Below are positions 9,034 to 33,608 of a stretch of DNA of 47,636 nucleotides, piece by piece. Position 1 is the first letter of the stretch. Every line of letters starts with the position of its first letter. The DNA comes from an uncultured Gammaproteobacteria bacterium. GTDB lineage: Bacteria > Patescibacteriota > Microgenomatia > Daviesbacterales > UBA10151. Both the position numbers and the translations under genes were made by a program. The notes beneath the pieces were generated by a model. The model was given only the letters and a program-made list of their open reading frames with translations. It had not been told where the DNA came from and did not search any database. The stretch covers positions 10,079 to 57,714 of the forward strand of contig CAZFZP010000001.1 in NCBI GenBank assembly GCA_964523515.1, in the 5' to 3' direction.

Positions 9034-9906
9034 TTAAGTATCAAACATCCGTAGAATCTCTTCATCTGTTAGTTTAGATTCCTTTTTCTCAACCTCTCTT
9101 TTCTTTTGAACCTCAGCCCATTTTTTATAAGCTGACAAAAATACGCTCCAATATTTAGGGTTAATTAATAACATCTTAGCTAAAGCCATTTTATGTTCTG
9201 AAAATAGCTTCTCCGAGGTGATATTTTTCCAGATAAATAATAGTTGGTTTCTTTGGGCAATTCTAGAAAATTTAGCCATAGAAATATTCTCCTCAATGAC
9301 TCCTTTCTCTAAAGGTAACACTACTTTGCATTCTTTAACCCACAAATTTTTATAGCCTCTTTTAGTTGCTCTATAGCCCAAATCAGTATCTTCCTCATAA
9401 TAAGGATCAAAGAATTGATCCATACCTCCTAATTTATCAAATATATTTTTCCTAAATATTCCACTACCCCCTCTGGCCCAAAGAGTCTGATGAGTTTCAG
9501 GTTCTCCCTCTTTCATATAATGCCAAAAGAAACCTTTGTTAAAATTAGCCCAAGACCAATTGCCTCCAGTATTACAACCAACACTAAATAGCAAAGGATC
9601 TTTAAAATAAGGCAAGGCTTTAATGAGGCAATCCGTATCTGGAACAGCATCTGGGTTTAATAGAAATACCAAATCTCCGGCAGCCTTACTTACCCCACTG
9701 TTAACATTTGAGGAAAACCCACCGTTTTTATCTCTTTTAATCAATCTGACCCCGGGAAAACTGTTAATTACTGTAATGCTTTGATCAACTGAGGCATCAT
9801 CTGATACTAAAAACTCATCCACACCCTCAACTTTTAAGATCTTTGGCAGATACCTCTTAAGTTTCTCTGCCCCATTCCAGTTAATGACCACCACCGATGT
9901 TTTCAT
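9034..9906 (-). CDS. Glycosyltransferase family 2
   Basis: 290 aa. Motifs: VVVINWNG, VSDDASVDQS, LLNPD, and YEEDTDLGYR. Confidence 0.8.
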   Translation of the reverse strand: MKTSVVVINWNGAEKLKRYLPKILKVEGVDEFLVSDDASVDQSITVINSFPGVRLIKRDKNGGFSSNVNSGVSKAAGDLVFLLNPDAVPDTDCLIKALPYFKDPLLFSVGCNTGGNWSWANFNKGFFWHYMKEGEPETHQTLWARGGSGIFRKNIFDKLGGMDQFFDPYYEEDTDLGYRATKRGYKNLWVKECKVVLPLEKGVIEENISMAKFSRIAQRNQLLFIWKNITSEKLFSEHKMALAKMLLINPKYWSVFLSAYKKWAEVQKKREVEKKESKLTDEEILRMFDT

Positions 9907-11072: not shown

Positions 11073-12093
11073 TAATTAGCTCCTTGTATATTCCGACAGT
11101 TTCGCTAGCACATTTTTCCCAACTAAACTTCTTTGCCTGTATAAATCCCTGTTTAATCATAGACTTACACCTATCATCATCCTCAATTACTGCTTGTACA
11201 GCTTTGGTAATCTCTGTGACATCTGTTGGGTTAATTAATAATGCTGCCTCTCCCCCAACTTCCGGAAGTGATGATGAGTTGGAAGTAATAACCGGAGTAC
11301 CTGTTGCCATAGCTTCTAATACCGGCAAACCAAATCCTTCATAAAGAGATGGGTAAAGCAAAACATCTGCTGCTGAGTAAAGTAAAGGCATCTCTTCATC
11401 CTCAACACCTGTTAAATTATGACCGGTGATCACCAGGTTATATCCTACTGACGCCTCTTTAACCCTCTCTAAATTCCGTCTGGAGCCAACTCCCCCGATA
11501 GCTAAAATAAATTTATCTGGTAAGCCATGCTTCTTTTTAAACTCTGCCACATCCTCGTCTAATTGTGGCCGAAACTCCTCTCTCACTCCTTCATAAATTA
11601 CTCTAATTTTTTCTTTAGGAATATTACTGACTTCTATGAGATCATTTTTGGTGGATTCAGAAACCGCTATTACTATATCAATCTCTCTTTCAACTAATTT
11701 TAGCCTACTTTTGTGCACTTTGATTATTTTAGAGTGAGACCACTCCGGGAATTTAAGCGGTACCAGATCATGATAGGTAGTCACTTTCTTAGCTTTAGTT
11801 TTAGGCTGGATCCAATCAGATGAGTGATAAATATCTACCTTACCAATAAACCTCTCGATCGGAACTACTCTGAGATGATTAAATAACTTCTCAAATAATA
11901 TTGGTGGGAAAGGGAATGGTTTAACATGGGGCAGAGGTCCATCATAGGGAACCCTCAGTGATGAGTAAAAATATGTCATTTGTAACGACTTTTGAAGTGC
12001 CAGTTTTTGGGATAAATTTTTAGTATAGGTTGCTACTCCGCCCCGATGAGCTAGCTGTGAAATATCCAACCCGACCTTGATTTTATTTGCCAT
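11056..12093 (-). CDS. Glycosyltransferase family 4
   Basis: 345 aa. Signature [32 protein letters not shown]. 17-nt overlap with the downstream paralog. Confidence 0.85.
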
Positions 12094-13504
12094 CTTTGTC
12101 TTTTAATCTCATAAACTCGGTAGTACCTATACTATCAACAACTTCATAGTTTTGAGTTATGTAACTATCTAATTTTATAGCAAAATCTTTAATATCCCAA
12201 CCCTCAATTACCACAGTTCTATCGGCAACTATCAATTTAGGCTTATCTTCCTGAAGTACCTCAAGAAACAGCTCTTCCGTCTCCATTAAAAACCAGGGGA
12301 ACTGAAAGACAAATATTTTACCAACAGGAATAGTTTCAGTCATTTGATAAAGATGCGGAACCAGTCCAAATAAATATATCTCCTCTTTCGGATCTGAATA
12401 CTCTTTAATTTTATCTGCTATGGCGTATGTACCCTTATCAAAAAAGAAGACCTTATCAGATAGATGCCCTTTATAAAAAATTGGTAGCCATAGCCCAATC
12501 ATTAATAGGTAACCTAGGATCAATAATCGCAAATTTGTCCGCTGCCACAGTTCACTAAAAACTAAAACAGTTATTATGACAATAAAAGGTAGCGATGGTT
12601 GGAAATGCACCATGTCAAACCTGGCAATATCTCCGGTAAAGCTGCCTAGCAAGAATACCAACAGAACCATGGCCAATTTTTTATTCGGAATTAAGAAGGT
12701 CAACAAAGATGGGCTATACACACCAATCACTCGAACTATTCCACTGAAAAATGGTGCTTTTCCTCCGAAACTTGCAAAGGTAGTTAGGTTAAAAGTAATA
12801 GTCCAAAACCACATCTCTTTAATCACCCCAATTGATAAATAATATGCTGTGGCCAACAACGGTATTGGTAAAATTCCTGACAAAAAATAAACTAGCGATT
12901 TTTTATCACGTAGATAAATTATCACTAACAAAAAAATAATTCCCGCTAGGGGAATAATTACCTGTTTAAATAAAATGCCCAAACTCAAAAAAAATCCTGC
13001 TAAAAACAACGACCGGTAAGATTTTTTTTGGGATATTGAAAGATAAGTAAAATAAAATGCCGGTAGTAAAAATAAAGGCAGAAAATTATCTATCCATAGA
13101 GTCCAGCCTTCTAGAAAAGGCTGCCATATTAAATATAGTAAGTTTCCCAATAAAGCTTTTTTATAGCTACTAGTTATCTTAGAAACCACCAAAAATATCA
13201 GCAGGTGGGTTGCTAGAACAATCCCAATTAACCACCATCTGGCCACAATTTCATTGGTCATTCCTAAGTTATCGAGATTTATTGGCAAAAACATTAACCC
13301 TGGGAAATGTTGGTCAAAAATTTGTTTATAAGGCGCTAGACCTTGGTTTGTTAAATATGGATAGATAAAAAGCTCCGGATAAGGAAAAAATAATAACTTG
13401 GTTAGAATCCAAGAATGAATAACTCCGATTATTAATAATCCATACAACCCAAAATTATTTTTTAACATAATGATATACAAACCCAACTCCTCTAAAGTCT
13501 TCAA
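12083..13504 (-). CDS. Polytopic membrane protein, probable GT-C (ArnT/PMT_2/DUF2029-like)
   Basis: 473 aa with at least 10 hydrophobic segments. The first-loop motif GLAPYKQIFDQHFPGLMF resembles the G-x-PY-x-D-F-[DE]-x-[KH]-PPL loop of ArnT-like GT-C enzymes. C-terminal soluble domain of about 110 aa. The true start may be the internal MLKNNF (about 13468). Confidence 0.5.
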   Translation of the reverse strand: MKTLEELGLYIIMLKNNFGLYGLLIIGVIHSWILTKLLFFPYPELFIYPYLTNQGLAPYKQIFDQHFPGLMFLPINLDNLGMTNEIVARWWLIGIVLATHLLIFLVVSKITSSYKKALLGNLLYLIWQPFLEGWTLWIDNFLPLFLLPAFYFTYLSISQKKSYRSLFLAGFFLSLGILFKQVIIPLAGIIFLLVIIYLRDKKSLVYFLSGILPIPLLATAYYLSIGVIKEMWFWTITFNLTTFASFGGKAPFFSGIVRVIGVYSPSLLTFLIPNKKLAMVLLVFLLGSFTGDIARFDMVHFQPSLPFIVIITVLVFSELWQRTNLRLLILGYLLMIGLWLPIFYKGHLSDKVFFFDKGTYAIADKIKEYSDPKEEIYLFGLVPHLYQMTETIPVGKIFVFQFPWFLMETEELFLEVLQEDKPKLIVADRTVVIEGWDIKDFAIKLDSYITQNYEVVDSIGTTEFMRLKDKDGK

Positions 13505-16570: not shown

Positions 16571-17281
16571 TTAATCTAAAAAGCGGTATTTAATTAAAGT
16601 CCAGACTGCCTTAATACCATCATGCCAATGTAGTTTTTTTCCCTGGATGTGAGTTCTAGGCTTGACCTTAATGGGAATCTCCAGTATTTGGAAGCCTTTC
16701 TTTAATATCTTAGCAGTTATCTCCGGCTCTATCTCAAATCGGCTGGATACAAGCCTCAAGTGCGATAATACCTCTTTTGAAACCATCTTGTAGCAAGTTT
16801 CCATATCACTCAACCGAACTCCATATAATAAATTAGTTAAGCCCGTAAGAATCTTATTCCCCATCCAGTGAGCAGGGAGAATGGTTCTCTCTTTCCCCCA
16901 AATCCTTAAGGGGTATTTGGCAAATCTATTGCCATAGACCACCAAAGCAGTGCCGTCTAATATTGGCTTGACAAGCCGCAATAAATCTTGAGGGTTATAT
17001 TCCAAGTCAGCATCCTGAATTGCTATAATGTCCCCCTTCGCTCTTTTGAATCCTTCACGTATTGCAGCACCTTTGCCACGATTATGTTTAAAAATCACTA
17101 TTTTTAAATCCTTAATCTGAAAATTTTTTAATAACTTTTTAGTAGAATCCGTCGAACCATCATCGACAACTATTATCTCTTTCATAATCATCTTCGGAAA
17201 CTGAAGTGATAATAATTTATTCAAAACAGTGAGAATAGTCTTCTCCTCATTAAAAACTGGAACGATAATGGAAATTTTCAT
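16571..17281 (-). CDS. GT2, DPM1/GtrB-like candidate polyprenol-phosphate sugar synthase
   Basis: 236 aa. Motifs: ISIIVPVFNEEKTI, VVDDGSTDST, NRGKGAAIREGF, IQDADLEYNPQD, SDMETCYKMV, and C-terminal GKKLHWHDGIKAVWTLIKYR. This motif set matches the short polyprenyl-phosphate glycosyltransferase subfamily as I recall it. Confidence 0.6.
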   Translation of the reverse strand: MKISIIVPVFNEEKTILTVLNKLLSLQFPKMIMKEIIVVDDGSTDSTKKLLKNFQIKDLKIVIFKHNRGKGAAIREGFKRAKGDIIAIQDADLEYNPQDLLRLVKPILDGTALVVYGNRFAKYPLRIWGKERTILPAHWMGNKILTGLTNLLYGVRLSDMETCYKMVSKEVLSHLRLVSSRFEIEPEITAKILKKGFQILEIPIKVKPRTHIQGKKLHWHDGIKAVWTLIKYRFLD

Positions 17282-18762: not shown

Positions 18763-19556
18763 CTTACAATTCGTCTCTTTAACTTCTTAATCAATGTTTC
18801 AAAAAAAGCCCGTAGAATATATGCCATCGATCTGTTCTCCCAAGGGTCTTTCACAATACTCGGATGCTTTAAATACAAAACTTCAGGATAATCAAAATTT
18901 GATGGGAAAGGAATCCCAAGCTCATATTTGAACTTTGCTCTTAATTTAAGTTTATGTGACCTACTCAAAAATGTAAGATGGAGATGAGGAGCCTCCAGTA
19001 AAACAACTCTGTCCAATGTTTGTACTGGGTTGCCTGACTTATCATAAAATCCTTCTGAGCCGTATGGTTGTTCGATATGTAATCCTGGAATCTTCCTATT
19101 TATGGCTTTGATCTGTAAATTACCCTCTCTACCCAGGAGTTTATATCTACCTGCTATTTCTTCCTGGTAGTGATAAATATCTCCAATGACATTATAAAAA
19201 GGGACAGCAATTGCATTTAGTTTTGTTCCTTCTCTATTGATTAAGTCCTCCACTCGTCGTACTGAATCATACCACCACACTTCATCCCCATCTAAAATTA
19301 TAATCCAGTCACAGTGTGATCGATCTAACATCTCTTGACGAAGACTACTGAATTGATATTTATCTACAGGTCCACATGTTTTAATAGATACTTTTTTTTT
19401 ATAAACTTTTTTTATCTCTTTTAAAATATGGGGAGTTCTGTCTGTTGATCCAGTATCATAAATTATAATTTTATCAACATAATCAATAACCGACATAACT
19501 GCATACCAAATAAAGCCCTCCTCATTGTGTACAATTGTGTGAGCCCAAATCTTCAT
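18759..19556 (-). CDS. GT2-like glycosyltransferase (short soluble type)
   Basis: 265 aa. Motifs: TIVHNEEGFIWYAV, IIIYDTGSTDRT, and IIILDGDEVWW (DxD). It contains an A9 tract (plus-strand T9 at 19392..19400). Confidence 0.7.
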   Translation of the reverse strand: MKIWAHTIVHNEEGFIWYAVMSVIDYVDKIIIYDTGSTDRTPHILKEIKKVYKKKVSIKTCGPVDKYQFSSLRQEMLDRSHCDWIIILDGDEVWWYDSVRRVEDLINREGTKLNAIAVPFYNVIGDIYHYQEEIAGRYKLLGREGNLQIKAINRKIPGLHIEQPYGSEGFYDKSGNPVQTLDRVVLLEAPHLHLTFLSRSHKLKLRAKFKYELGIPFPSNFDYPEVLYLKHPSIVKDPWENRSMAYILRAFFETLIKKLKRRIVR

Positions 19557-20827
19557 TTTCTAATCCTTCGGAATAAGTAAAACCCAGGAACTAATAAATT
19601 GAATAAGGATCCAATAAGAACTGCTAGTGCAGTACCTACTGCTTGGTATTGACTAATTAAATAGAATCCTACTGTTAACATGATTATGATATGACCAAAT
19701 GAAAGAAAAGTAAAGAATTTAGAGTCTGAAAAATAATACAAAATCGCATTATGAATAGGAATTGAGATTAAAAAAATAAGCATAGCCAACAGTAATATCA
19801 CAAAAATTGGAGCAGCAGCAATATATTCCTCTCCGTAGGTAAGCTGGATGATAAATGATGCAAATGGAATCAATAACAATGCAACAACCGAAGGGATTAT
19901 CACTAGTATTTGAGTCTTTTTGTAGTAACTTATCATTGAGCCTAAGGAGGAAAAATTTGAATACTTAGGAGAGAAGACTAGTCCGAGTGCAGATGCTAGT
20001 TGTGGAATGACGACTAGAAGCTGTGCCGCTGCCACATAAAATCCAAGTTGTTGTGTGTTAAGAATTCGTGCGCTAAGAAAGATATCGACTCTTGATGATA
20101 GAGCCGTAATTGCTATAAAGACCGCAGCCCATTTACTATAGTTGAAAAATTGGCTAATGGATTCGCTAGGTACCTTAACTGTTAGGATTTTGATAATTGG
20201 CATAAAACCTAGAGCTATAACAAACCCAAGAATAGGAAAAATTAAATAAGCTATCAGACTATTTAATATAGTTAACGATTGAGATGAAACTAGCAACCCA
20301 ATTAATATAAGTCTACCTAGGTTTAAGGAAATATTTAAGCCCCCCCAAGAAAGGAATCTTGATTTTGCTTGTAGATAAGAAGTTACATAAGAAAATAGAA
20401 GTGCTCCTATGACACCTAGACTTGCCAACCTTAATGGAAAAACTAAATCTGATTTATTAAATAATGTATTAGCTATTATGTCAGAGAGAAGATATCCAAT
20501 GACTGCTACTGTCAGAGATACTATAATTTTAGTGACTAAGCCTATTTTTAGAACTTCTCGCTCACTGTCGCTTCTTGCCTGTAATGAAGCGGCGAATTTC
20601 ACTATCGATGTATTAACTCCTAAATCTGCTATATCTGACATTAGTGTCAGAACAGTTATAGTCGTAATAAACAACCCAAAATTAACTGGACCTAAATATC
20701 TAGCTAAGACTGCAAAAAAAATAAAACCTAAAATCCCATTAATCATTGTAGCAATGACAGTAATCGAAGTTTGCCGGAAAGTTACAGTTTTTAGAAATTT
20801 AGAGAATTTTGGGAGATGTCTAACCAT
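19553..20827 (-). CDS. wzx: Wzx-type oligosaccharide flippase (MOP/polysaccharide biosynthesis protein family)
   Basis: 424 aa with about 12 hydrophobic segments. N-terminal pattern (ITVIATMINGILGFIFFAVLARYLGPVNFGLF) is typical of Wzx/RfbX-type proteins. Confidence 0.75.
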   Translation of the reverse strand: MVRHLPKFSKFLKTVTFRQTSITVIATMINGILGFIFFAVLARYLGPVNFGLFITTITVLTLMSDIADLGVNTSIVKFAASLQARSDSEREVLKIGLVTKIIVSLTVAVIGYLLSDIIANTLFNKSDLVFPLRLASLGVIGALLFSYVTSYLQAKSRFLSWGGLNISLNLGRLILIGLLVSSQSLTILNSLIAYLIFPILGFVIALGFMPIIKILTVKVPSESISQFFNYSKWAAVFIAITALSSRVDIFLSARILNTQQLGFYVAAAQLLVVIPQLASALGLVFSPKYSNFSSLGSMISYYKKTQILVIIPSVVALLLIPFASFIIQLTYGEEYIAAAPIFVILLLAMLIFLISIPIHNAILYYFSDSKFFTFLSFGHIIIMLTVGFYLISQYQAVGTALAVLIGSLFNLLVPGFYLFRRIRK

Positions 20828-20848: not shown

Positions 20849-21040
20849 TTATGAGTATATAAAATAGCTGGCTTGTAGAGAAAATAATAGAAAATAAATC
20901 GTAAAACCCACCTCAATGGTTTTATCAGTTGATCCAGTGTCCCAGACCAACAACTGATCAACGAACAGAGCAATTGACATTAAAGCATACCAAACAAAAT
21001 TCTCCTCATTGTGGACAACAGTGTTAGAAACTATTCTCAT
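20849..21040 (-). pseudogene. Truncated 5' remnant of a GT2 gene paralogous to 18759..19556
   Basis: The 63-aa ORF MRIVSNTVVHNEENFVWYALMSIALFVDQLLVWDTGSTDKT... aligns without gaps to residues 1-42 of the 265-aa GT2 (MKIWAHTIVHNEEGFIWYAVMSVIDYVDKIIIYDTGSTDRT). By hand count 23 of 42 residues are identical. It then diverges and stops, and no frame continues the homology. The DxD half of the enzyme is absent. Confidence 0.55.
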
Positions 21041-21363
21041 TTGGACTTTTGATCGTTTTCTTTTTCAGTAATTAATTGAAATACTGTCAATACTAGACAT
21101 AAAAATACATAAACCCCAACCGCTCCCGCCACCTCAACACTAAAAATGGAGATTACCATGCTAATAAACAGCAATATAAAGCCGATTATTAATGGTGTTT
21201 GATGACGAAGACGGTGAAATCGATTAAATATTATCCATATAACAAAGATGGCGATATAGATAACAGTCAACATGCTCATACTGTAGTATAGTTCCTCTAC
21301 CAAAGAGACTAATTTATCAATGATAATACTTAACATATCCCCTCCTAAGAATAAGGAATCCAA
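21037..21363 (-). CDS. Small hypothetical membrane protein (about 3 TM)
   Basis: 108-aa ORF with three hydrophobic segments and a charged C-terminus (EKENDQKSK). The annotated start overlaps the 1163-aa gene by 47 nt. Internal starts at about 21336 or 21279 are possible. The stop forms an ATGA overlap with the GT2 remnant's start (21037..21040). Confidence 0.45.
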   Translation of the reverse strand: MDSLFLGGDMLSIIIDKLVSLVEELYYSMSMLTVIYIAIFVIWIIFNRFHRLRHQTPLIIGFILLFISMVISIFSVEVAGAVGVYVFLCLVLTVFQLITEKENDQKSK

Positions 21364-24300
21364 TAGATAATATAATAGCTATAACTGATAATAATTTTCC
21401 CAGACTAAACACACCTTCTGACTCATACTCTAAAAACATTTCGTAGTCACCTTGTTTATCAATATACCAAGCGTTTGCATAGCCATTAATCAACGTATGA
21501 TCGCTTGCGTCAACTTTGACCCCCCCTATACTACCAGTTAGTTTTCCCCAAATACTGATAACATTTCTTTCTTGGTAGTAAGCATGCCAAAGAGGATTGA
21601 AGGTGGTAGATAATACCAAGAAATAAGGATCGGTAGCATTTTTTACACTAACACTGTATCTTGCTGAACTAATTTTGTTAAAACTAACTTGTGGTGGTGT
21701 TGACGTTGCTAAATTTGTCCCCACCTCTCTCAATATTACCGGATTAGAAAAGACCTTTTCTATCTTTAGATTGCGAATCCTCGAAGTAGAGTCTCTTAAA
21801 AATTTCCTGTTAAAAGAATTATCTTCACAATATCTGCGATATGCTCTTTGTACCACAGCCTTACAATCCCCATAAGGCAAGATCTTAAAAACAATATTGT
21901 GTTCCTTAGCAGATAATGTTGGATTAAAATAGGCCGAATACTTTTTCCACCCAAAGTCATAATCGCTTCGACCTAGAGCTATTCCAAATTTAGGAATCTT
22001 TTCCCCTTTTTTGTCTATTTCATCCACATCCGTGTGTATCAACATCACTGGGACATTACCTTTCTCCGCTAAATATTCAAATGAAATCTGGTAAGTATAG
22101 TTACTATCTAGTTTAGATACCGGGATCGTTTTTACTAAGGGCTTTTTATCTTGCGAGGATAAAACCAACTCCTCCGGCAACTGTTCAGCGACTAGATTAA
22201 TGAGGTTAGGTTTAAGGAAACTAACTTCATGTGTCCCTTTTTTAAAATCATAAACTCCCAATGAAATATTATTTCCCTGAGATGAATAATTCGCTTGACT
22301 GGATAAATAGGTCTTTCCATCAACATCAAATTCGAGAATTGTTACATCCCGGTAATATTTTTCCCACCTATCTTTCGAAATTAGAATCTCATATTTTGAA
22401 TCACGAGGAGTATAAAAACGATGGATAACTTCTTTGTCAGTTAGAAAAACTGATTTAACCCTTAGGTCAACAAATAATTTATCATGTTCAGAGATTAACT
22501 GTTGTATTACATCTTTAGAGACACTATTTTTTCTTAAATCCTCCAAGGCTTTTTTTTGTCCAATTAACTTATATACTATATCTTTATCTTTGGAACCACT
22601 GCTTATTAGCTCTTGTGAGACAGATTGAAAAAGAGATTTATATTCATTAACTGCTGTTAAATCCTGCGGATCATGACTCATCTCAACAACTCTTTTTCCA
22701 AGCAAGTTAACCTTAAAATACAGCTGCACACTTTGAGCCTGAAGTTGCGCCTCTATCTCTTCTTTCAGTCTGACCAAGGCATAAAAAGGGGTACCTCGAT
22801 AAACGTTGACAAAGGGAAGGTCTTCAATCGAATTTAGTGCCTCCATATTTAGATTTTCTACTCGCAAACCTTTTATTATAATCTTATTTGATAAATCCAT
22901 ATACTTATCGTGATCAGGACTTTTGGTTGTGGTAATAAAAATATCTTTTGTTTTGGGCATAGAAGAGGGTAACATGCTAATACCGTTGCCCTCAGGATCA
23001 TACAGATATGTTGGTGAGGTACTGGCAAAAATCTTAGGGTAAAAATTATCTGGCTTAATTTCAAAAATCTTCAACTTACCAAACTCAGCTGCCAGCGTAA
23101 AATGATCCTTCAGATTAGATTCAATACTGCTAAGTATTGTCGCAGGTGACTCTGTAGCCCGAGCTATATAATCGATATCATCTCTGACCATCAGATACTT
23201 TACGTTTAACATTTGAGCTAGAACCCAAAACTGGTCTGGATATCTGGCAAACAGTTCATTAATACTAGCGACCATTTCTGGAAGAAACACCTGGCCAGTG
23301 TTAAAGGATATCATGGGTTGGTTAAAAAGCGTGTTCGACAACTCAACGCCAGAAAATCCATACTCCCAGTTATACGTCATTCCTTCACCGTTAATTGGAA
23401 ATACCAAAACCCTAAATAAATTATTTTGGCTATCTAACCAATTTTGTGCGTCCTCGTAATATTTGGGTACTTTTACGTATTGACCAATATTCATATCCTC
23501 CGCTGGTTTACCACCACCAGTAAATACCAATCCGGTAACAATTGGGAACATATAAATTGGGAATATTATAATGAGGATAATTGTAATCAGAACTCTGTAA
23601 AATTTTACTCTGGCTTTTAAAAAACCAGCTACTAGATCTATCCCAAAACCAACGGGAATAGCCATTACAATCGGGAGCAATAGACCCACTTTTTCGTAAG
23701 AGTTTCTAAATACCTGCAGAGGGGTGAAAACCTGCATCAAAACTAGAGACAACTCCCCAAAGGGTGGAAGGGTACCTTTCATAAAAAACATTGTTATTAG
23801 CGATAAGACAATAAAATATACAAATAAAACATCTTTTTTAAATCGAAATAAACTAACCATAAAAGCAGTAATAAAGAAGAAGCTTAAAACTGTAAATACC
23901 GGAGTGTAATAGATCCAACCCCAAACACTACCATCACTAACGTAAAACCTGACTGGAAACAACCTAAAAACACTGAGGACTGATCCTAGATTATCACTTA
24001 TTATTTTAAATGTTTCAACGTTTCCAAATGAATCAAAGTATTTGAGACTGGTAGTAGAAGCTGCTGGAGTCAGATATGACATAAAAAGGGGTAACAACCA
24101 CCAGAGATGCACTACAAAAAAAATGATTCCAAACAATATAAAATATAGAAAAGGGTAAAAGTTAAGTTTTTCTATTCTGGATTTTAAAACATACACCAGG
24201 CTTAACAATCCAATTATTAAGAAAAATGTTTCAAATAAGGCTAGCGTAACAAAGGCATAACTAAATAAAACCGATATTAGACTTAAAATTAATAAATGTC

Positions 24301-24808
24301 CCAGGCTTCTTTTACGTAAGCCACTATCATATATCAAGATAGCCAAAGGAATAAATCCATAAAAAAACAACATTGGGTATTGCATTCTATGCAACACCGC
24401 AACATGCACAATCGGGTTTAAAATATAGAAAAGTGTTGCAGATACTCTGACCAAATAATTGTTACCCGGGATTAAAGATGTAAGCTTATGAATTGAAAGT
24501 GCTCCACAAACAAATATTAGCCAATACAAAGAAGCTTGGAGAATAAAAGCTGGAACACCTAAATTGGTAAAGAAAGTTAAGGTAATATAGAGAGGGTAGC
24601 TAGCATAACCTATCGCACTACTTGTGCCCAATGGAACATCCGACCAACTACTCTGAATATCATCTAGGAGCCTCGAGGGATTATAAAAAGGAAGCCCTGA
24701 TTCGCCTGAACCAAGTATTAACCCCTTATGAAACCAGATAACAACCAAAAGAGTTACTAGTGCCACCAAAGTTACTCTCTCTTGGAACATGTGTATTTTC
24801 CTAAACAC
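21317..24808 (-). CDS. Giant (1163 aa) membrane protein: N-terminal polytopic GT-C-like module (YfhO/AftD-like), about 700-aa extracytoplasmic region, and C-terminal TM anchor
   Basis: The first 430 aa or so contain about 13 hydrophobic segments, with an acidic loop after TM1 (GSGESGLPFYNPSRLLDD). A long hydrophilic region follows. It ends in a single helix, LLSVIAIILSIGFLILRR. This architecture resembles the YfhO and AftD/DUF3367 families as I recall them. The coding call is certain. The family assignment is tentative. Confidence 0.55.
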   Translation of the reverse strand: MFRKIHMFQERVTLVALVTLLVVIWFHKGLILGSGESGLPFYNPSRLLDDIQSSWSDVPLGTSSAIGYASYPLYITLTFFTNLGVPAFILQASLYWLIFVCGALSIHKLTSLIPGNNYLVRVSATLFYILNPIVHVAVLHRMQYPMLFFYGFIPLAILIYDSGLRKRSLGHLLILSLISVLFSYAFVTLALFETFFLIIGLLSLVYVLKSRIEKLNFYPFLYFILFGIIFFVVHLWWLLPLFMSYLTPAASTTSLKYFDSFGNVETFKIISDNLGSVLSVFRLFPVRFYVSDGSVWGWIYYTPVFTVLSFFFITAFMVSLFRFKKDVLFVYFIVLSLITMFFMKGTLPPFGELSLVLMQVFTPLQVFRNSYEKVGLLLPIVMAIPVGFGIDLVAGFLKARVKFYRVLITIILIIIFPIYMFPIVTGLVFTGGGKPAEDMNIGQYVKVPKYYEDAQNWLDSQNNLFRVLVFPINGEGMTYNWEYGFSGVELSNTLFNQPMISFNTGQVFLPEMVASINELFARYPDQFWVLAQMLNVKYLMVRDDIDYIARATESPATILSSIESNLKDHFTLAAEFGKLKIFEIKPDNFYPKIFASTSPTYLYDPEGNGISMLPSSMPKTKDIFITTTKSPDHDKYMDLSNKIIIKGLRVENLNMEALNSIEDLPFVNVYRGTPFYALVRLKEEIEAQLQAQSVQLYFKVNLLGKRVVEMSHDPQDLTAVNEYKSLFQSVSQELISSGSKDKDIVYKLIGQKKALEDLRKNSVSKDVIQQLISEHDKLFVDLRVKSVFLTDKEVIHRFYTPRDSKYEILISKDRWEKYYRDVTILEFDVDGKTYLSSQANYSSQGNNISLGVYDFKKGTHEVSFLKPNLINLVAEQLPEELVLSSQDKKPLVKTIPVSKLDSNYTYQISFEYLAEKGNVPVMLIHTDVDEIDKKGEKIPKFGIALGRSDYDFGWKKYSAYFNPTLSAKEHNIVFKILPYGDCKAVVQRAYRRYCEDNSFNRKFLRDSTSRIRNLKIEKVFSNPVILREVGTNLATSTPPQVSFNKISSARYSVSVKNATDPYFLVLSTTFNPLWHAYYQERNVISIWGKLTGSIGGVKVDASDHTLINGYANAWYIDKQGDYEMFLEYESEGVFSLGKLLSVIAIILSIGFLILRRGYVKYYH

Positions 24809-25898
24809 TATAGCTAATTACCTCCTTTTTTAATGATTCATCCCTCAGAAGAAGCGGGGTAATTTTGTTTTGGGCTTTTTTAAGGTAACGGTAGAAATCA
24901 AAGATAGATCCCTTAAAAAAAATTTTCCCAAATAAGTATTTATCCGAAACTCTTCTCACCTTAGTTTGAATTATACTTCTTTTCTCCAGAGTTTCTGGCA
25001 AATGCTTAAAACTCCAATATAGCACTTGAATCCAACCCACCATGGCTTTAGAATCTCCTTTTAAAAGCAATACCAGCGCACGCAGTGAATAAATTATCAA
25101 AAATTGAGGCAGATAAACAATTAGTGAATTTAAACTATAATTCTTAATAAAAACATTCAGCATTCGACCATAGAAAAATTCCCATTTAGTATTCTGCCTG
25201 CCCTCTTTCAAGGACCAGTGATATATCTTTGCGTTAGGAACTAGCACTATTCTAAATCCTGCTAACCAAACCCGCCAATTCATATCAAGATCATAAATTA
25301 ACGCATCAATATCCTCATCAAACATCCCAGCTATCGTAAATACCTCCTTGCGTACCACCAAACCTTCAAAACCATTAAAAGTCTCGACTGGTTTTTGATA
25401 TTTTATACCATCCTTCTTGCCAAGATCTAGAGATACTATCCAACCTGTCTCACGCATCAGATAATGTCTGTACACCTGAATTAGGTTGTGTTGATGAAAA
25501 TCATAAAATTTAGCAATAACTCCACCTACCGATCTATCCGACTTTAAAAGATATCTTACTAACTCTTTCAGCCAGTTAGGGTCAAGTGTCATGTCACAGG
25601 CGACAAATGCAACTAGATCTCCTTTACTTGTTTTGATTCCTAAATTTAGAGATTTTGTCGAACCAAGCCTGTTGGTGTTTTCGATGATTATCCACCTTTT
25701 ATCCTTACTAACTATTTTTCTAGTGATCTGTACACCGTTATCTCCGCAAGGGTCAAAAACAATAATTACTTCATAATTGGAATACCTAGTCTTCTGAAGG
25801 CTTTTTATAAGATTACCAATTAGATACTCTGACCTAAAGGCAGGAATAATAATACTCACCAGAGGATCCTTTATTTTCATAACATTAATATAAAACAA
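24801..25898 (-). CDS. Glycosyltransferase family 2 with C-terminal membrane segments
   Basis: 365 aa. Motifs: VSIIIPAF, IIVFDPCGDNG, and MFDEDIDALIYDLDMNWRVWLAGFRIVLVPNAKIYHW, followed by a hydrophobic stretch (LIVYLPQFLIIYSLRALVLLL). Paralog of 28141..29175. Confidence 0.8.
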   Translation of the reverse strand: MFYINVMKIKDPLVSIIIPAFRSEYLIGNLIKSLQKTRYSNYEVIIVFDPCGDNGVQITRKIVSKDKRWIIIENTNRLGSTKSLNLGIKTSKGDLVAFVACDMTLDPNWLKELVRYLLKSDRSVGGVIAKFYDFHQHNLIQVYRHYLMRETGWIVSLDLGKKDGIKYQKPVETFNGFEGLVVRKEVFTIAGMFDEDIDALIYDLDMNWRVWLAGFRIVLVPNAKIYHWSLKEGRQNTKWEFFYGRMLNVFIKNYSLNSLIVYLPQFLIIYSLRALVLLLKGDSKAMVGWIQVLYWSFKHLPETLEKRSIIQTKVRRVSDKYLFGKIFFKGSIFDFYRYLKKAQNKITPLLLRDESLKKEVISYSV

Positions 25899-25913
25899 AG
25901 AGCTCTATATAAT

Positions 25914-27098
25914 CTACTGATTTGTAAAAACATCTATTATTGTCTTTATTTCTTTTTTAGTTAAATCAGGATTATTACCAACATAAAGACCTTGATTATG
26001 AATTAATTTAGCATTTGGAGTACTTGAGATATTTTGAAAATGAGGCAGGTATTTATTAAAAAAAGGTTGCACAGTCATATCACCACCTACGATTGGGCGA
26101 ATTTCAATTTTTCCTTGACAGTTCTTTATTAATTTTTCAAGTCCGCTTTTAGAACGGCAAATCACCGGGAAAGCAAAATTAGAGATAATATCTAGCTGAG
26201 CAAACCGGAGAGGGTAATATAGATCAGTTAATTTATATACTTCGTCTGCAATCATTTGAAAATTCCTTTTCCTTTTTTCTATTATTTCATCCAAATATTT
26301 AAGCTGAGTATTTCCTAAAAATGCAGTTATTTCAGTTGGGCGTAGATTATATCCCAGATCATAAAATGTATACATTGCATAAAACGACGAATCTACCCGA
26401 TAATTTTTTCTGATAACAGATTGCTCATCTAATCCTATGTTTCTATCCCAACCATGTGCCCGAACCAATCTTAGCATGATAGCTAGTTGATCACTGTCCG
26501 TACAGACTGCTCCCCCTTCTATGGTTGACAGGTGGTGACCGACATAAAATGAAAATGTACTAGCTAAGCCAAAATTGCCAAGTTTTTTACCTTTATAAAC
26601 AGATCCCAGTCCCTCACAGTTGTCTTCGATTAAAATTATTTTTCTTTTTTTACATATTTTCACAATTTCATCAATATCATCACAAAATCCCAGAAGGTTA
26701 GTTAAAAAGAATAATTTAAGCGGATACTTTTCCAGAATATCAGTAAATTTCCGACTGGAAACATTTAATGTATCTAGTTCCACATCCACCGGTACAACAT
26801 TTAGCCCTAACTCAATTAGAGGCATCAGATTAGTTGCCCAAGTAAGAGCCGAAAAGGCTGAGTGATCGCCCTTTTGAATTTGTCCTAAATTTAGTAAAGC
26901 TTGGATAAGGCCCAAATTAGCAGAGCTACCGCTATTAAAAAATATGCAATGTTTCCTATTTTGATATTTAGCAAATCTCTCTTCAAATTTTTTACACTCT
27001 ACCCCAAAACTTAACTGCTTCGCCGAAGTAATAAATTTACTAAGGTTTCTTTTTGTTTCCATCTCTTTATAAAATGTTGTCTTAATTAATTTAATCAT
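25914..27098 (-). CDS. colD: DegT/ColD-family PLP/PMP enzyme with active-site Lys replaced by His: candidate GDP-4-keto-6-deoxy-D-mannose 3-dehydratase (ColD-like)
   Basis: 394 aa. Motifs: FNSGSSANL, IEDNCEGLG, and FSFYVGHHLSTIEGG. Where the true aminotransferase in this window (42627..43736) has FSFYPTKNMTTGEGG, this protein has His (residue 188 by my count, codon CAC at 26535..26537). This is the hallmark of ColD/E1 3-dehydratases. It lies 4 bp downstream of gmd. Confidence 0.7.
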   Translation of the reverse strand: MIKLIKTTFYKEMETKRNLSKFITSAKQLSFGVECKKFEERFAKYQNRKHCIFFNSGSSANLGLIQALLNLGQIQKGDHSAFSALTWATNLMPLIELGLNVVPVDVELDTLNVSSRKFTDILEKYPLKLFFLTNLLGFCDDIDEIVKICKKRKIILIEDNCEGLGSVYKGKKLGNFGLASTFSFYVGHHLSTIEGGAVCTDSDQLAIMLRLVRAHGWDRNIGLDEQSVIRKNYRVDSSFYAMYTFYDLGYNLRPTEITAFLGNTQLKYLDEIIEKRKRNFQMIADEVYKLTDLYYPLRFAQLDIISNFAFPVICRSKSGLEKLIKNCQGKIEIRPIVGGDMTVQPFFNKYLPHFQNISSTPNAKLIHNQGLYVGNNPDLTKKEIKTIIDVFTNQ

Positions 27099-27102
27099 TG
27101 TA

Positions 27103-28119
27103 TTATTTTATCTGTTTATTTACTCCGGATTGTTTAAGGTCAGAGTTGAGCATAATCCTAACTAACTCTTTGAATTTTACTCTTGGTTCCCAACCTAATA
27201 TCTCTTTGGCTTTTTTGGCATCACCCATTAGTACATCAACCTCTGTTGGACGAAAATATCTAGGATCAATTTTAACGTAGCGCTTCCAGTTAAGACCCAC
27301 CAAACTAAAAGCCAATTCGACAAACTCACGAACTGTATGCGTCTCACCGGTAGCAATTACAAAATCATCTGGTTTGTTTTGTTGAAGCATCATCCAAGCA
27401 GCTTGCATATATTCTTTAGCAAAACCCCAATCCCTTTTCGAATCCAAATTTCCCAAATAGAGTTTATCTTGTTTCCCAGACATTATATTTGCGATTGCCT
27501 TAGTGACTTTTCTTGTTACAAAGGTTTCTCCCCGACGAGGTGATTCATGATTGAATAATATGCCTGACACAGCAAAGATGTTATAACTTTCGCGATAATT
27601 TACTGTCATATGGTGGCCCATTAATTTGGCTATTCCATAAGGACTCCGTGGATTAAATGCAGTTTGTTCATTTTGGGGTGCAGGTGAGCTACCAAACATC
27701 TCACTACTTGAGGCCTGGTAATATTTTGTTTTCAAGTCTAATATTCTAATCGCTTCAAGTACCCGTAAGGCACCCAACCCAACTGAGTTAACGGTGTATT
27801 CAGGAATATCAAAACTAACTCTTACATGACTTTGAGCAGCTAAATTATATATCTCATCTGGATGAACCTTTTCCAAAAGTGTGATGATTGATCCTGTGTC
27901 AGTTATATCACCAAAATGCAACAAAAGTTTCGCACGAGACTCATGAGGATCTTTGAATAAATGTTCAATCCTATTTGTATTGAATGTACTTGCTCGGCGG
28001 ATGACGCCATGAACTTCGTATCCCTCACGAAGAAGTAGCTCTGCTAAATAAGAGCCATCTTGTCCAGTTATTCCAGTTATTAAAGCAACTTTTTTTTTAT
28101 TTTTCTTAAGTTTATTCAT
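27103..28119 (-). CDS. gmd: GDP-mannose 4,6-dehydratase
   Basis: 338 aa, near-colinear with E. coli Gmd as I remember it. Matching segments: [108 protein letters not shown], and [11 protein letters not shown]. Confidence 0.93.
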
Positions 28120-28140
28120 GATACAACTTTACAATACTAA

Positions 28141-29175
28141 CTAATAACCTGCTTTCATTAGGTTGGCAGTAGTTTTAGCTCCTTGAAAATATAATCTATA
28201 GAGATATACCAGATTAGTGGAGATCATGATTTTACTAAAAATATCACAATCTCTAGCTCTTCGATATTTTTGCACTTTTTCTCTTTCTACAAGTGTATCA
28301 GATAGGTGAACAACGCTCCATCCTAATCCCATTAAAACTCCAGCAATCCCCATTAAGCTATTTCTGGTTAATAAAATATTTAAAGCGCCTACCATACTAA
28401 ATAGTATTGAAGTGGGAAGAAACTTTAATGTATTAGAAATTTCATAATTTTTTATCATCATTCGATACGAGTTTTTGGAAAGATGAAAATAAAGTTTATG
28501 ATTTGGATTATGAACTTTAAGATAATGATAGACCTTGGCATTAGGAGCTAGCATAATCCTAAATCCTGCGATCCATACCCGCCAGGAAAAATCCAGATCG
28601 TCACAATAGTGGAAAAGATTTTCGTCAAATCCTCCGATTACCTTAGTTACACTTTTTCTTACTGCAAGTGATGCTCCCAATGAAATGATCTCCATTGGAA
28701 ATTTATATTTTTTACTATCCTTCTCTCCTCTTCCAATGGTCACACCGAATCCAGTAAACGGAATTAGTTTCATACCAGCTTGTTGGATAGTTTTCCTATT
28801 TTTTATATCGAACATTTTACATTGGGCAGCACCAATACTATTATCAGATAAAAAAACTTCTGATAAACCTACTATCCATTTCTTATCCACCTCTGTGTCA
28901 TTATCCAAAAAAACCAAAATATCTCCTGTAGATTTTTTAATCGCTTTATTCCTACTTTTGACTAACCCAATATTTTGATTATTTCTAATGAAAATTAAAT
29001 CTTGTGCATTTTTATACTTATTGATTATTTGCAAACTTCCATCAGTCGAGCCATCATCAACTATAATCACCTCAAATTTTGGATAAATTGTTTTAAAGAC
29101 AGAAGATAGACATTTTTCTAGATATCGTTCGCCATTATATGTCGCGATAATTATTGAAAACTTAAGTTTTTTCAT
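28141..29175 (-). CDS. Glycosyltransferase family 2 with C-terminal membrane segments
   Basis: 344 aa. Motifs: FSIIIATYNG, IIVDDGSTDGS, LDNDT, and FDENLFHYCDDLDFSWRVWIAGFRIMLAPNAKVYHY. Paralog of 24801..25898. Confidence 0.8.
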   Translation of the reverse strand: MKKLKFSIIIATYNGERYLEKCLSSVFKTIYPKFEVIIVDDGSTDGSLQIINKYKNAQDLIFIRNNQNIGLVKSRNKAIKKSTGDILVFLDNDTEVDKKWIVGLSEVFLSDNSIGAAQCKMFDIKNRKTIQQAGMKLIPFTGFGVTIGRGEKDSKKYKFPMEIISLGASLAVRKSVTKVIGGFDENLFHYCDDLDFSWRVWIAGFRIMLAPNAKVYHYLKVHNPNHKLYFHLSKNSYRMMIKNYEISNTLKFLPTSILFSMVGALNILLTRNSLMGIAGVLMGLGWSVVHLSDTLVEREKVQKYRRARDCDIFSKIMISTNLVYLYRLYFQGAKTTANLMKAGY

Positions 29176-30853: not shown

Positions 30854-31773
30854 TTTAGATCCTTATTCGTTTTTAGGATGTTACCATATCTCCTAGGAGA
30901 TGTAACTCCTTCCATATATCCTCTACAAAACTGCATAAAACCTGTAAAATTTTTTTCCTTAAAACAAATAACCGCAAAGTATATTAAATAGACCGGAGAA
31001 AAAAATAAAAAAATATAGAAATTCTTTCCGAAATCCCTCATAAAAATAACCCTGTTGCGCCCTATCCAAAAACTACGACTTATTAATCTAACGCGCTCGT
31101 CCTTTTTTAAAGGTGAGATGTTGTGATATGCAATGGCATTTGGGCTGTACAAAGTGACAAAACCATTTTTTTTAGCTCTGAAACAAAAGTCAGTGTCCTC
31201 GTAGGTAGCAAAATAGCGATTATCAAATCTTGTGACCTTTTTTAAGACAGCTCGTTTAACTAGTATTGCTGCGGGAGCTACCTGAACTTCCTCAATCTTT
31301 TCATATTGCCCCACATCCCTACCTCCCCTAAATAAAATCTGTCCTGTCCAAAGATTGATATTAGTTCCAGCTGCCCAAATTCTTTTCCGGTCTCTATTGT
31401 AGTATATTTTCGGTGTCGTGATTCCAACAGCCTTATTCGACTTTACAGCTGCCACTAAATTTTCCAACATTTTTTTATCAGCAACCATATCATGATCAAA
31501 AAATAATAAGTAATCGCTCCTTTTACTAGATTGGTCTATGCCAATATTTCTACCTCCTGTTACACCAAGATTGTAATTTAATGTCATAAATTTCACCTGG
31601 GGAAAATCTTTTGTTATTTTCTTGGTTGTATTATCAGTTGAGGCGTTATTTACAACTATTATCTCCAAAGGCTTTAAACTTTGCTGATAAATAGATTTGA
31701 TACAAGCCTGTAGAGTGTTCCAGCTATTGTATGTAGGAATAATTACTGATACAAGCCGGCCCGAGGAACTCAT
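30850..31773 (-). CDS. Glycosyltransferase family 2
   Basis: 307 aa. Motifs: VSVIIPTYNS, VVNNASTDNT, FFDHD, and YEDTDFCFRAKKNGF. Confidence 0.85.
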   Translation of the reverse strand: MSSSGRLVSVIIPTYNSWNTLQACIKSIYQQSLKPLEIIVVNNASTDNTTKKITKDFPQVKFMTLNYNLGVTGGRNIGIDQSSKRSDYLLFFDHDMVADKKMLENLVAAVKSNKAVGITTPKIYYNRDRKRIWAAGTNINLWTGQILFRGGRDVGQYEKIEEVQVAPAAILVKRAVLKKVTRFDNRYFATYEDTDFCFRAKKNGFVTLYSPNAIAYHNISPLKKDERVRLISRSFWIGRNRVIFMRDFGKNFYIFLFFSPVYLIYFAVICFKEKNFTGFMQFCRGYMEGVTSPRRYGNILKTNKDLN

Positions 31774-33608
31774 TCTTCATTCAGTAGCAATTTTTGTTTT
31801 ATTTTTTCTGTTACATTTAGCAAAGACTGTTGCTCCATCCTAATTCCATAAAGATTTACAATAGACTTGGGATTCTCCTTAATGTATTTAACAAGATCCG
31901 GGTAATTTTCATAATACAAACCTGTACCCATATGCGGATCCCAGCCATACTTTAAACTTGTTCTAAACAGAAATCCAAAATACAGTGTTTCAAATAAAGT
32001 TTCTTTATCAAGTTGATTTTCTGCAGATTCAAACCATAAGATAGGTGGGTTAGATTTTGAAAACTCAATTTTATTAGGTACAATTTCTGTAAATTGCTGC
32101 CATATATTATTAGCCAAAAATCGGTTATGAGTTAAGGCCTTATTGTCAAAAAATGCTTTAGTATTAACCGCATGACTGAAGATCATCAACAGTACCAGAC
32201 AAAGAGTGGTAACCCGCAGCAATTTACTCTGAAAATGATAGCCCAAAGTTAATATTCCTGCTAAAAACAACGGAACGCTGGGACCAGTTGTAATTAAATA
32301 ACGGTGGTAAGTCCCCAAAACGGGTCCACCATTCATAAACAAAGGGAGTAATAAAAAGGAGAATGACCAAAGCAGAGTAATTAAAAATAAATCTTTTATG
32401 TGAGTGGATAAGCCTTTTGTAAGAACTAAAAATGTACAGATGATCATAAAATATCCACCAAATAAAGTAAGTGCCAAATTTATCCATGATGTAAAATTTA
32501 ATGGTCCTTGTTTTAAGACAAGGTAAACAACTATAGTCCATAACAAACCGAAAGAAAAAAGGGACAAAAATTTGGGTGTCAGATGAGTAGCAACATCCTT
32601 TCTTTTAGAAAAAACACCCGTTATCACCCAAGTAATCCCGCCAAATATAAACAGACTGGGAATTATTACGGAACGAAATTGACTGCTCCCCAAAAATGAA
32701 AAAGATTTAGGAAAGTTTAAATTAGACCAAGTCATATCAGGTAATAGAACGACGCCTAGATTAGTGGTCGGAGAAAGCAAAAAATCGAATTTAGATAGGT
32801 TAATCTGATACCAAAATGCTTCCAACCCAACGCCAATGATGTATTTTTGTGAATAATCTGACTCCATTTGGCCAAGTAAAAATTTATCAACCAGAATGAA
32901 AATAGCGAAACCTACAAACCAGAAAATTAAATTTCTGAGGCTATTCTTGGATCTTAAAGTAATTAGCTTATAAAGACTCCAGGCCAAAATTACGATTACA
33001 AACCCACTAGTCCTCATAGTTGCATACCAAATCCCCAGACAAGCTAGAAAAAAAGACACTGACCAGGTCTTAATTTTAAAATTTGTGGGTAAATCAAGCC
33101 CAATATAGATACTTAAAGTTATAAAAATTAGACCAATATAGGCATACATATTAAAGACCCAGTGGGTTGCTTCAACACCAGCAAAAGAAACCGCTAACAG
33201 TAGTGAGCAAATAAGTGCAACAAATCCATTTCTGCACAGTTTATTGATAAGTAAATACCAAACAATCACTGAAATAAATTTTAGGAGGACTGCAATTGAG
33301 TAATAAGCGAAGGCATTTAACCCAAACAGGTCTTTAATAATATCAAATGTTAAGGTTGCTCCACCTAAGCTAGTGCGCATATTTCTCCAAAAATCCTCGT
33401 TAAACATAGCGTTGCCATATGCCTTAATATACGCCCATGCATACTGCCAAGTATCACCTTGAAGCTCCAATGAAAACACACCCCAATATATATATAAAAT
33501 GAGGGCTAGGTTTAAAAACATGACAAGACAAATAAATTTAAAATTCAAGGATAATAACTTCAGCATATTATCTATTCTTATTTTCTCTATTTTGCACAAG
33601 CATAGCAA
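31770..33608 (-). CDS. Polytopic membrane protein of unknown family, GT-C-like architecture (member 1 of a 3-paralog set)
   Basis: 612 aa with at least 12 hydrophobic segments plus a C-terminal soluble domain of about 130 aa. The motif ELQGDTWQYAW follows TM1. The likely true start is the internal MLKLLSL (about 33566), just after the upstream stop. Confidence 0.5.
   Translation of the reverse strand: MLCLCKIEKIRIDNMLKLLSLNFKFICLVMFLNLALILYIYWGVFSLELQGDTWQYAWAYIKAYGNAMFNEDFWRNMRTSLGGATLTFDIIKDLFGLNAFAYYSIAVLLKFISVIVWYLLINKLCRNGFVALICSLLLAVSFAGVEATHWVFNMYAYIGLIFITLSIYIGLDLPTNFKIKTWSVSFFLACLGIWYATMRTSGFVIVILAWSLYKLITLRSKNSLRNLIFWFVGFAIFILVDKFLLGQMESDYSQKYIIGVGLEAFWYQINLSKFDFLLSPTTNLGVVLLPDMTWSNLNFPKSFSFLGSSQFRSVIIPSLFIFGGITWVITGVFSKRKDVATHLTPKFLSLFSFGLLWTIVVYLVLKQGPLNFTSWINLALTLFGGYFMIICTFLVLTKGLSTHIKDLFLITLLWSFSFLLLPLFMNGGPVLGTYHRYLITTGPSVPLFLAGILTLGYHFQSKLLRVTTLCLVLLMIFSHAVNTKAFFDNKALTHNRFLANNIWQQFTEIVPNKIEFSKSNPPILWFESAENQLDKETLFETLYFGFLFRTSLKYGWDPHMGTGLYYENYPDLVKYIKENPKSIVNLYGIRMEQQSLLNVTEKIKQKLLLNEE

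Follow-up and report, generated by a model that had tools for sequence, protein, structure and literature searches.

A divergent AftD-family GT-C membrane glycosyltransferase gene and its small membrane-protein neighbor in a Patescibacteria glycan island

The 47,636-nucleotide stretch analyzed here (the window; positions 10,079 to 57,714 of contig CAZFZP010000001.1, assembly GCA_964523515.1) is one co-directional glycan island, and its largest gene, 21317..24808 on the minus strand, encodes a membrane protein that belongs to a divergent branch of the AftD family of GT-C glycosyltransferases. This open reading frame (ORF) comprises 1163 uninterrupted codons from a GTG start, compared with 650 amino acids (aa) for the second-largest ORF of the window, in agreement with an earlier sequence-only reading that had singled it out as the largest gene without stating its strand. 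The gene is defined by the ORF itself, by two public gene calls, by an above-threshold match to the Pfam family PF11847 and by a structural model with its Foldseek matches. The two gene calls differ in their start, giving proteins of 1163 aa (GTG at 24808) and 1157 aa (ATG at 24790), and either start is plausible since each has Shine-Dalgarno-like letters upstream (GGAGG 12 nt 5' of the GTG and AGGA 8 nt 5' of the ATG). The 8-nt overlap reported earlier with the upstream GT2 gene (stop codon at 24801-24803) holds for the GTG start, whereas the ATG start leaves a 10-nt spacer instead. Residue numbers given below refer to the 1157-aa form; six must be added for the 1163-aa form. A chance ORF can be dismissed, given that over 150 cluster representatives conserve the gene along its whole length.

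The AftD-like protein matched PF11847 (GT-C_AftD, formerly DUF3367) over profile positions 24-542 of 661 (E 6.8e-12; 44.6 bits, where the curated cut-off is 26). A whole-genome Pfam search gave the same result, and homologues of the protein carry a precomputed PF11847 assignment; NCBIfam held no model matching it. Since a search of PDB sequences with the single sequence returned only chance-level matches to LRRK2, a family profile was needed to reach AftD. With a profile of 25 members, the best PDB match was the Mycobacteroides abscessus AftD (6w98, 6wbx), a weak match (E 0.023) in which the alignment is collinear over ~520 residues (58-584 of the protein and 58-569 of AftD). An AlphaFold2 model built on an alignment of 25 homologues reached a mean predicted local distance difference test (pLDDT) of 81.6 and a predicted template modeling score (pTM) of 0.75. 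When this model was compared with the PDB by Foldseek, three AftD entries came first (E 5e-17 to 3e-16, probability 1.00, TMq 0.44-0.47), headed by 6w98_A, followed by STT3, DPY19, AftA, ArnT and PglB, all of which are GT-C enzymes. AftD is therefore the best match by Pfam, by the profile search of the PDB and by Foldseek. Thus, both the resemblance to AftD and the GT-C fold that the sequence-only reading had put forward are borne out. The same reading had also named YfhO, the GT-C enzyme of Firmicutes teichoic acids, whose layout is similar to that of the protein studied here (polytopic at the N-terminus, with a large domain outside and one transmembrane (TM) helix at the C-terminus); however, no match to Pfam YfhO (PF09586) was found at E ≤ 1, and we rejected this identity in favor of AftD. 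Taken together, profile, fold, domain layout, conserved gene order and motif conservation support the assignment of the gene to a divergent, uncharacterized branch of the AftD family that is widespread in Patescibacteria (the candidate phyla radiation, CPR).

Hydropathy analysis indicated hydrophobic segments throughout residues 1-420 and one more at 1124-1150, and the model contains 12 long helices at the N-terminus with a long loop at ~241-320. Averaged over the family, the N-terminal tail has 2.4 K+R and 0.2 D+E and the C-terminal tail 3.5 K+R and 0.4 D+E; the short loops 161-163 and 205-211 are basic as well, and a clear positive-inside pattern is seen across the family. Since these K/R-rich tails imply that both termini lie inside and there is a single C-terminal helix, the ~705 residues between the membrane module and that helix (419-1123) are predicted to lie outside the cell, and the number of N-terminal spans is expected to be odd. 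The earlier placement of the large domain outside is thus upheld, with the same topology as AftD, and both hydropathy and the model agree with the single C-terminal anchor proposed at the same time. We read 11 of the 12 long model helices as membrane-spanning, seven of which precede the long outside loop, the same number as in AftD; this count is reached either by setting aside 112-134 or by counting 164-204 as a single span. The previous description of a polytopic N-terminal module stands, but its figure of about 13 TM segments was probably a slight overcount.

Five regions can be distinguished along the protein (all on the minus strand). The membrane GT-C module (residues 1-418; 23537..24790) contains the 11 spans as read above and the outside loop EL4 (~241-320), and is delimited by hydropathy, the model, the K/R distribution and the alignment with AftD residues 58-569. 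It is followed by the extracytoplasmic alpha/beta domain of the GT-C super-domain (residues 419-650; 22841..23536), recognized in the model, to which the Pfam match and the AftD alignment extend as far as about residue 580. Next, the model and the conservation pattern delineate a five-helix bundle (helices 670-775; 22454..22840) with conserved residues E677, K699, R700, E703 and Y717. Residues 780-1123 (21422..22453) are modeled as two tandem jelly-roll beta-sandwiches resembling carbohydrate-binding modules (CBMs), which occupy 788-970 and 1002-1122 in the full model. A separate model of this region, built on a 14-sequence alignment, had a pLDDT of 83.0, and its Foldseek matches were the soluble part of AftD (6e-5), PorU, accessory beta-sandwich domains of GH101, tandem CBM22 domains (1e-3), CBM4 and MAM domains. 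Judged from these models, the region is made up of two CBM-type jelly-roll domains, as had been anticipated from the sequence for some part of the outside region. Finally, the C-terminal TM anchor with its K/R-rich cytoplasmic tail (residues 1124-1157; 21320..21421), identified by hydropathy, the model and the K/R content, is the counterpart of AftD TM12; the modeled helix covers 1124-1156, and the protein ends about eight residues past this single helix, with no TM13-16.

Residue conservation was assessed over 157 members aligned at full length, whose median identity to the AftD-like protein is 28%. The acidic first-loop sequence GESGLPFYNPSRLLDD that had drawn attention earlier is present, and includes the motif G-E-S-G-L-P-F at 24686..24706 (minus strand). 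Every one of the 155 ungapped members has E or D at position 30 in this motif, and at position 483 the same is true of all 157. In addition, R362, E366, K367, W475, G481 and D538 are conserved at ~99%, as are Y122, N125 and R135. The R362-N-x-x-E366-K367 motif (23690..23707, minus strand; each of the three named residues ~99%) lies at the outer end of the third-last N-terminal helix, and the motif W475 ... G481-x-E483 (23342..23368, minus strand) lies in the soluble GT-C domain. In AftD, the residues K39, D41, E251, K361 and D474 are essential (bioRxiv 10.1101/2019.12.22.885152). The N-terminal chain of AftD reads SPDTKLDLAINP, with a chain numbering offset of 3 from the native protein, and MAFFT aligned its D37-T-K39-L-D41-L with E30-S-G32-L-P34-F, such that G32 and P34 occupy the positions of K39 and D41 and an acid is kept four residues before P34. 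Glycine at position 32 is found in 132 of the 157 members and proline at position 34 in 122. R362 lies one position from AftD K361 and roughly corresponds to it, and E483 aligns with AftD E475, which adjoins the essential D474; for the pair D474/E475, facing V482/E483 here, an acid is thus kept at the second position only. Given that the alignment is at only ~11% identity, E30 could be the functional counterpart of AftD D41. Since these residues are nearly invariant across members this divergent, their conservation argues for a preserved, functional active site with a first-loop motif unlike that of AftD, in which E30 (as candidate catalytic acid), R362, E366, K367, E483 and D538 are the candidate catalytic residues.

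In AftD, 11 TM helices at the N-terminus lead into a periplasmic domain, after which come TM12 and TM13-16; both termini are cytoplasmic, and TM13-16 form a four-helix bundle that binds acyl carrier protein (ACP) (bioRxiv 10.1101/2019.12.22.885152). Like AftD of the Mycobacteriales (PDB 6W98, 6WBX, 6WBY), the protein described here has a GT-C fold whose N-terminal module counts 11 TM helices (as read from the model), a soluble alpha/beta domain and an extensive extracytoplasmic part in which CBM-like beta-sandwiches occur; one helix then returns to the membrane, and both termini are cytoplasmic. Two AftD sites are also matched, K361 by a basic residue at the site or beside it and E475 by an acid. 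Several features differ from AftD. Its first loop reads E-S-G-L-P-F rather than D-T-K-L-D-L; it lacks the TM13-16 bundle and hence the ACP site; it has two CBM-like domains where AftD has three plus a beta-sandwich; it carries the extra five-helix bundle at 670-775, and no such domain is in the list given in the AftD paper; and an overlapping gene encodes a separate mini membrane protein. Moreover, no DprE1-type gene was found in the genome, which is that of a CPR host and measures ~0.8 Mb. The branch thus carries a family-specific first-loop motif and a conserved mini-partner.

The extent of the family was examined in two ways. When 301 evenly sampled genomes of the phylum were searched, PF11847 matched in 18 at E ≤ 0.001 and in nine above the cut-off, indicating that the Pfam model detects the family patchily. 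With the family's own profile, 10,942 cluster representatives were found at E ≤ 0.001 and 2,888 at E ≤ 1e-30, and where relatives carry any public name it is "hypothetical protein" only. Our literature search found no paper linking AftD or arabinofuranosyltransferases to the candidate phyla radiation, and "DUF3367" appeared in one unrelated paper.

The mini-protein gene (21037..21336, minus strand) encodes 99 aa with ~3 TM segments judged from its sequence. It starts just after an AGGAGG and shares its first 20 nt with the 3' end of the AftD-like gene. The same 20-nt overlap is found in L002, the closest syntenic locus, where the counterpart is 28% identical, and a small hydrophobic ORF (79-182 aa) occupies this position in 12 of the 13 related loci examined, marking it as a conserved positional partner. 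When 11 of these mini-ORFs were aligned, a shared C-terminal pattern was seen, but only one column was conserved at 90% or more. No Pfam family (GtrA included) and no PDB entry matched the mini-protein, and we rejected its identification as a GtrA- or SMR-family protein on the basis of these empty searches.

A 1957-aa ORF in a related CPR genome (L029:201-6074, G142:C2) is a tandem fusion of two complete AftD-like modules; its first loop, GGDSILDL, is closer to the DTKLDL of AftD, and its Pfam score is much stronger (99.6 bits). The highest score of the mini-protein profile falls on the linker behind TM12 in the first module of this fusion (residues 1072-1119). Against the linker alone the score was 11.6 bits, a value reached by none of 500 linker shuffles (shuffle maximum 10.2); because the linker was chosen by hand as the target and the margin is small, this score is only a hint. 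The linker match, if real, would make the mini-protein a physically attached module standing at the place of AftD TM13-16. The mini-protein is probably a subunit of the AftD-like enzyme. More tentatively, and with rather less confidence than we would need to favor it, we raise the possibility that the two proteins form an obligate two-subunit GT-C enzyme typical of CPR, in which the mini-protein would be a split counterpart of TM13-16 with a regulatory or donor-handling role, perhaps delivering or flipping the lipid-linked sugar.

The surrounding island has GT2 and GT4 genes in large number, and also encodes five methyltransferase domains and two PMT_2-type GT-C proteins, along with one Wzy_C-like and one Wzx/MOP protein. 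To assess which of these genes are conserved neighbors, 20 related loci, in records titled Candidatus Woesebacteria, Candidatus Daviesbacteria, Patescibacteria group bacterium or, for several, uncultured Gammaproteobacteria, were compared with the window proteins by BLAST. The recurring order is (GT2 like that at 28141) (GT2 like that at 24801, or methyltransferases), AftD-like gene, small hydrophobic ORF, (a paralogous GT-C protein of 880-940 aa), Wzx, GT2, methyltransferase(s), DPMS-like GT2, GT1, GT2, PMT_2 and a 473-aa membrane protein. The portion from the AftD-like gene through the small TM ORF, the paralogous GT-C gene where it occurs, Wzx, GT2, methyltransferase(s), DPMS-like GT2 and GT1 to the last GT2 gene was seen in at least 10 loci. 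In about 15 related Woesebacteria, Daviesbacteria and Patescibacteria loci, the AftD-like gene is accompanied by the small overlapping gene, a Wzx-like gene and a DPMS/AglJ-like GT2 gene.

Three of these neighbors deserve mention. The GT2 gene directly upstream of the AftD-like gene (24801..25898, minus strand), whose product has one hydrophobic C-terminal segment, is a conserved neighbor in the closer relatives. We rejected it as a GtrB/ArnC-type donor synthase since its best matches are GT2 enzymes of the chondroitin/heparosan synthase type, with ArnC reached only at 1e-4. A Wzx/MOP-family flippase gene (19553..20827, minus strand) is conserved downstream of the AftD-like gene. The third (16571..17281, minus strand) encodes a 236-aa GT2 that resembles DPMS, AglJ, ArnC and GtrB and is a better candidate for the polyprenyl-phosphate-sugar synthase: its top PDB matches are DPMS (5mlz), ArnC and GtrB, its top NCBIfam matches are AglJ (4e-35), PgfS, ArnC and PpgS, and its best full-length matches are all polyprenyl-phosphate monosaccharide synthases. 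Every one of these NCBIfam scores falls below the equivalog cut-off. Orthologues that are 51-56% identical lie within 10 kb of the AftD-like gene in at least 10 loci, and this identity holds even where the AftD-like proteins are only 28% identical.

Three-component systems are established in which a cytoplasmic GT2 enzyme synthesizes a polyprenyl-phosphate-sugar whose sugar, after flipping, is added to an outside glycan by a GT-C enzyme with a CBM; for example, GtrA/GtrB/Gtr*, CsbB-GtcA-YfhO, and polyprenyl-phosphoribose synthase with a MATE flippase and GT136 (PMC11127046). As in these systems, a GT2 resembling DPMS, ArnC and GtrB and a transporter of the MOP family are encoded in conserved positions close to the AftD-like gene. 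The arrangement differs from them in that GtrA- and SMR-type flippases are missing from the cluster, the GT-C enzyme is a member of the AftD family rather than being Gtr*, YfhO or GT136, and the three genes are non-adjacent within a glycan island of more than 47 kb that encodes several other GT-C-like proteins.

From the family and fold, the topology and outside domains, the conserved residues and gene order, the DPMS-like GT2, the initiating phosphoglycosyltransferase and the precedent of the three-component systems (PMC11127046), we propose that the AftD-like enzyme takes a sugar from a polyprenyl-phosphate carrier and adds it to a surface glycan on the outer side of the membrane, a role that we regard as reasonably probable and for which both the donor and the acceptor are putative. 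In this scheme, the cytoplasmic DPMS/AglJ-like GT2 would load the sugar onto polyprenyl phosphate, and the lipid-linked sugar would then be flipped to the outer leaflet, for which the MOP protein and the mini-protein are the local candidates. The AftD-like enzyme would bind the lipid-linked sugar in a pocket between its membrane module and the outside alpha/beta domain and move the sugar to a cell-surface glycan, either lipid-linked or wall-linked, which the surrounding Wzx-type cluster would assemble on a lipid carrier. The two CBM-like beta-sandwiches and the helical bundle would hold the glycan polymer, and the enzyme could make single side-chain additions or extend a chain processively.

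Several observations weigh against this proposal. The protein is only ~11% identical to AftD and, as noted, the profile similarity (E 0.023) is marginal. Two of the five residues essential in AftD (K39 and D41) are glycine and proline here, which are also the majority residues of the family, and no counterpart of E251 was found in the AftD alignment, in a region (245-252) where the confidence of the model is low. The DPMS-like GT2 gene lies 4 kb from the AftD-like gene, non-adjacent, and could serve the two PMT_2-type GT-C proteins instead. Finally, the only GtrA domain of the genome lies inside a 414-aa ORF on contig 7, outside the cluster, leaving the MOP/Wzx-type protein as the sole transporter candidate of a known family within it.

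Among the alternatives, an enzyme resembling an oligosaccharyltransferase (OST), which would transfer a finished glycan en bloc from polyprenyl diphosphate to a protein (an S-layer protein or pilin) or another acceptor, would fit a cluster that encodes a Wzx-like flippase and a phosphoglycosyltransferase. STT3 is indeed the second-best structural class (7oci_F, E 5.8e-6), but AftD is a far better structural match (5e-17) and no Pfam STT3 match was found. WWDYG is a motif of OSTs. The local N-W-E-Y-G resembles it; however, across the 157 members only the tryptophan (W475) of WEYG is conserved, position 476 being E, D, P or K and position 478 G or P. The cluster also already encodes a Wzy_C-type candidate ligase/polymerase (5460-6905), and we consider an OST-like activity unlikely.

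The position of the AftD-like gene directly downstream of a gmd, colD-like and GT2 block, which is as the sequence-only reading described it in this window, had led to the suggestion that the enzyme installs or polymerizes a 3,6-dideoxyhexose (colitose-type) part made by the products of these genes. The gmd gene matches TIGR01472 with 530 bits, and the colD-like gene has ColD as its best PDB match (E 2e-58). The pair is flanked by two paralogous GT2 genes, and in L009 this slot is occupied by a colD orthologue (64% identity). Yet this is the only related locus with one, and no gmd orthologue lies within 10 kb in the related loci compared. In L002, the two GT2 genes are directly adjacent and the slot is empty, yet the AftD-like gene is kept at 52% identity. 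The gmd/colD pair therefore lies in a variable, swappable sugar-cassette slot, and the AftD-like gene is kept whatever the slot holds. In addition, GT-C enzymes take lipid-phosphate-linked donors on the outer side of the membrane and not GDP-sugars (PMC11127046), for which the flanking GT2 genes are more natural users. The deoxyhexose link thus finds no support in the related loci, and we judge it improbable, to about the same degree as an OST-like role. The slot itself (24801-29175 in the window, minus strand) holds colD and an SDR gene in L009 and two other genes in L010.

A true AftD orthologue would be an arabinofuranosyl- or other pentofuranosyltransferase using a donor of the decaprenyl-phospho-arabinofuranose type, supplied by a pathway with a UbiA-type synthase, DprE1 and DprE2. 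In its favor, the Pfam family matched is the one named after AftD, one UbiA-family gene is present elsewhere in the genome, and the L003 cluster contains a flavin adenine dinucleotide (FAD) oxidoreductase gene. Nevertheless, true arabinofuranosyl activity is unlikely: no DprE1-type gene (ALO, PF04030) was found in the genome (95.6% complete), whose sole UbiA-family gene is on a different contig, adjoining a WecA-like gene. The 11% identity, the changed K39/D41 motif and the conserved donor-synthase candidate of the hexose-phosphate-lipid type all point the same way, and leave orthology in the strict sense very improbable. The UbiA-family gene lies at L027:4792-6770 (contig 3), and its neighbor is of the WecA/MraY-type GT4 kind.

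That the protein has no catalytic activity and only organizes the assembly machinery as a scaffold or glycan-binding ruler, which the loss of two AftD-essential residues and the large CBM-like and helical outside domains might suggest, is hardly likely given the near-invariant acids at 30 and 483 and R362, E366, K367 and D538 at GT-C key sites in the conservation set.

CPR bacteria have very small genomes and depend on host contact, and how they build their surfaces is little understood. The genome studied here (816,657 bp in 79 contigs) devotes more than 47 kb, ~6% of its ~0.82 Mb, to this one glycan island. If this branch does comprise working AftD-type transferases with a changed first loop and a mini-subunit, it would extend the family beyond the mycobacterial cell wall, where it is mainly known, and would provide a handle on the envelope glycans of CPR. 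The logic of a lipid-linked donor, a GT-C enzyme and a CBM is already known, and this would be an extension rather than a new principle.

The island has a starter enzyme and extends past the window, since a Bac_transf initiating phosphoglycosyltransferase (contig 9265-9870, E 6e-60) is encoded on the same strand 209 nt to the left of the window start. On the other side, ~9.4 kb to the right of the window end, a 772-aa ORF matches (contig 67094-67393) the ~900-aa paralogous GT-C protein of the relatives with 31% identity over 90 residues (E 1.4e-8), in the C-terminal part of the ORF, where a beta-sandwich and anchor module is shared with the paralogue; the island probably continues beyond this end as well. 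An orthologue of that paralogue was not found in this genome, this weak 90-residue match being the only one. In the relatives, the paralogous gene (880-940 aa), and sometimes a gene of ~500 aa on the opposite strand, lies between the mini-ORF and wzx. At this place the window has a 63-codon ORF (20849-21040, minus strand) that begins at an ATGA junction with the mini-protein gene and breaks off after a stretch resembling a GT2 N-terminus (HNEE ... DTGSTD), probably marking a deletion or rearrangement.

Four polytopic proteins of the island had no Pfam or NCBIfam match (31770-33608, 612 aa; 35102-37054, 650 aa; 43761-45308, 515 aa; and 12083-13504, 473 aa; minus strand). Homologues of these occur in related glycan islands, and the four may be additional unannotated GT-C-like enzymes. 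Finally, nine of the loci (L009, L010, L012, L015, L017, L019, L023, L025 and L026) are titled "uncultured Gammaproteobacteria bacterium" yet have in common with the Woesebacteria, Daviesbacteria and Patescibacteria records both their gene order and 24-52% protein identity, and these titles look like placeholders or mislabels.

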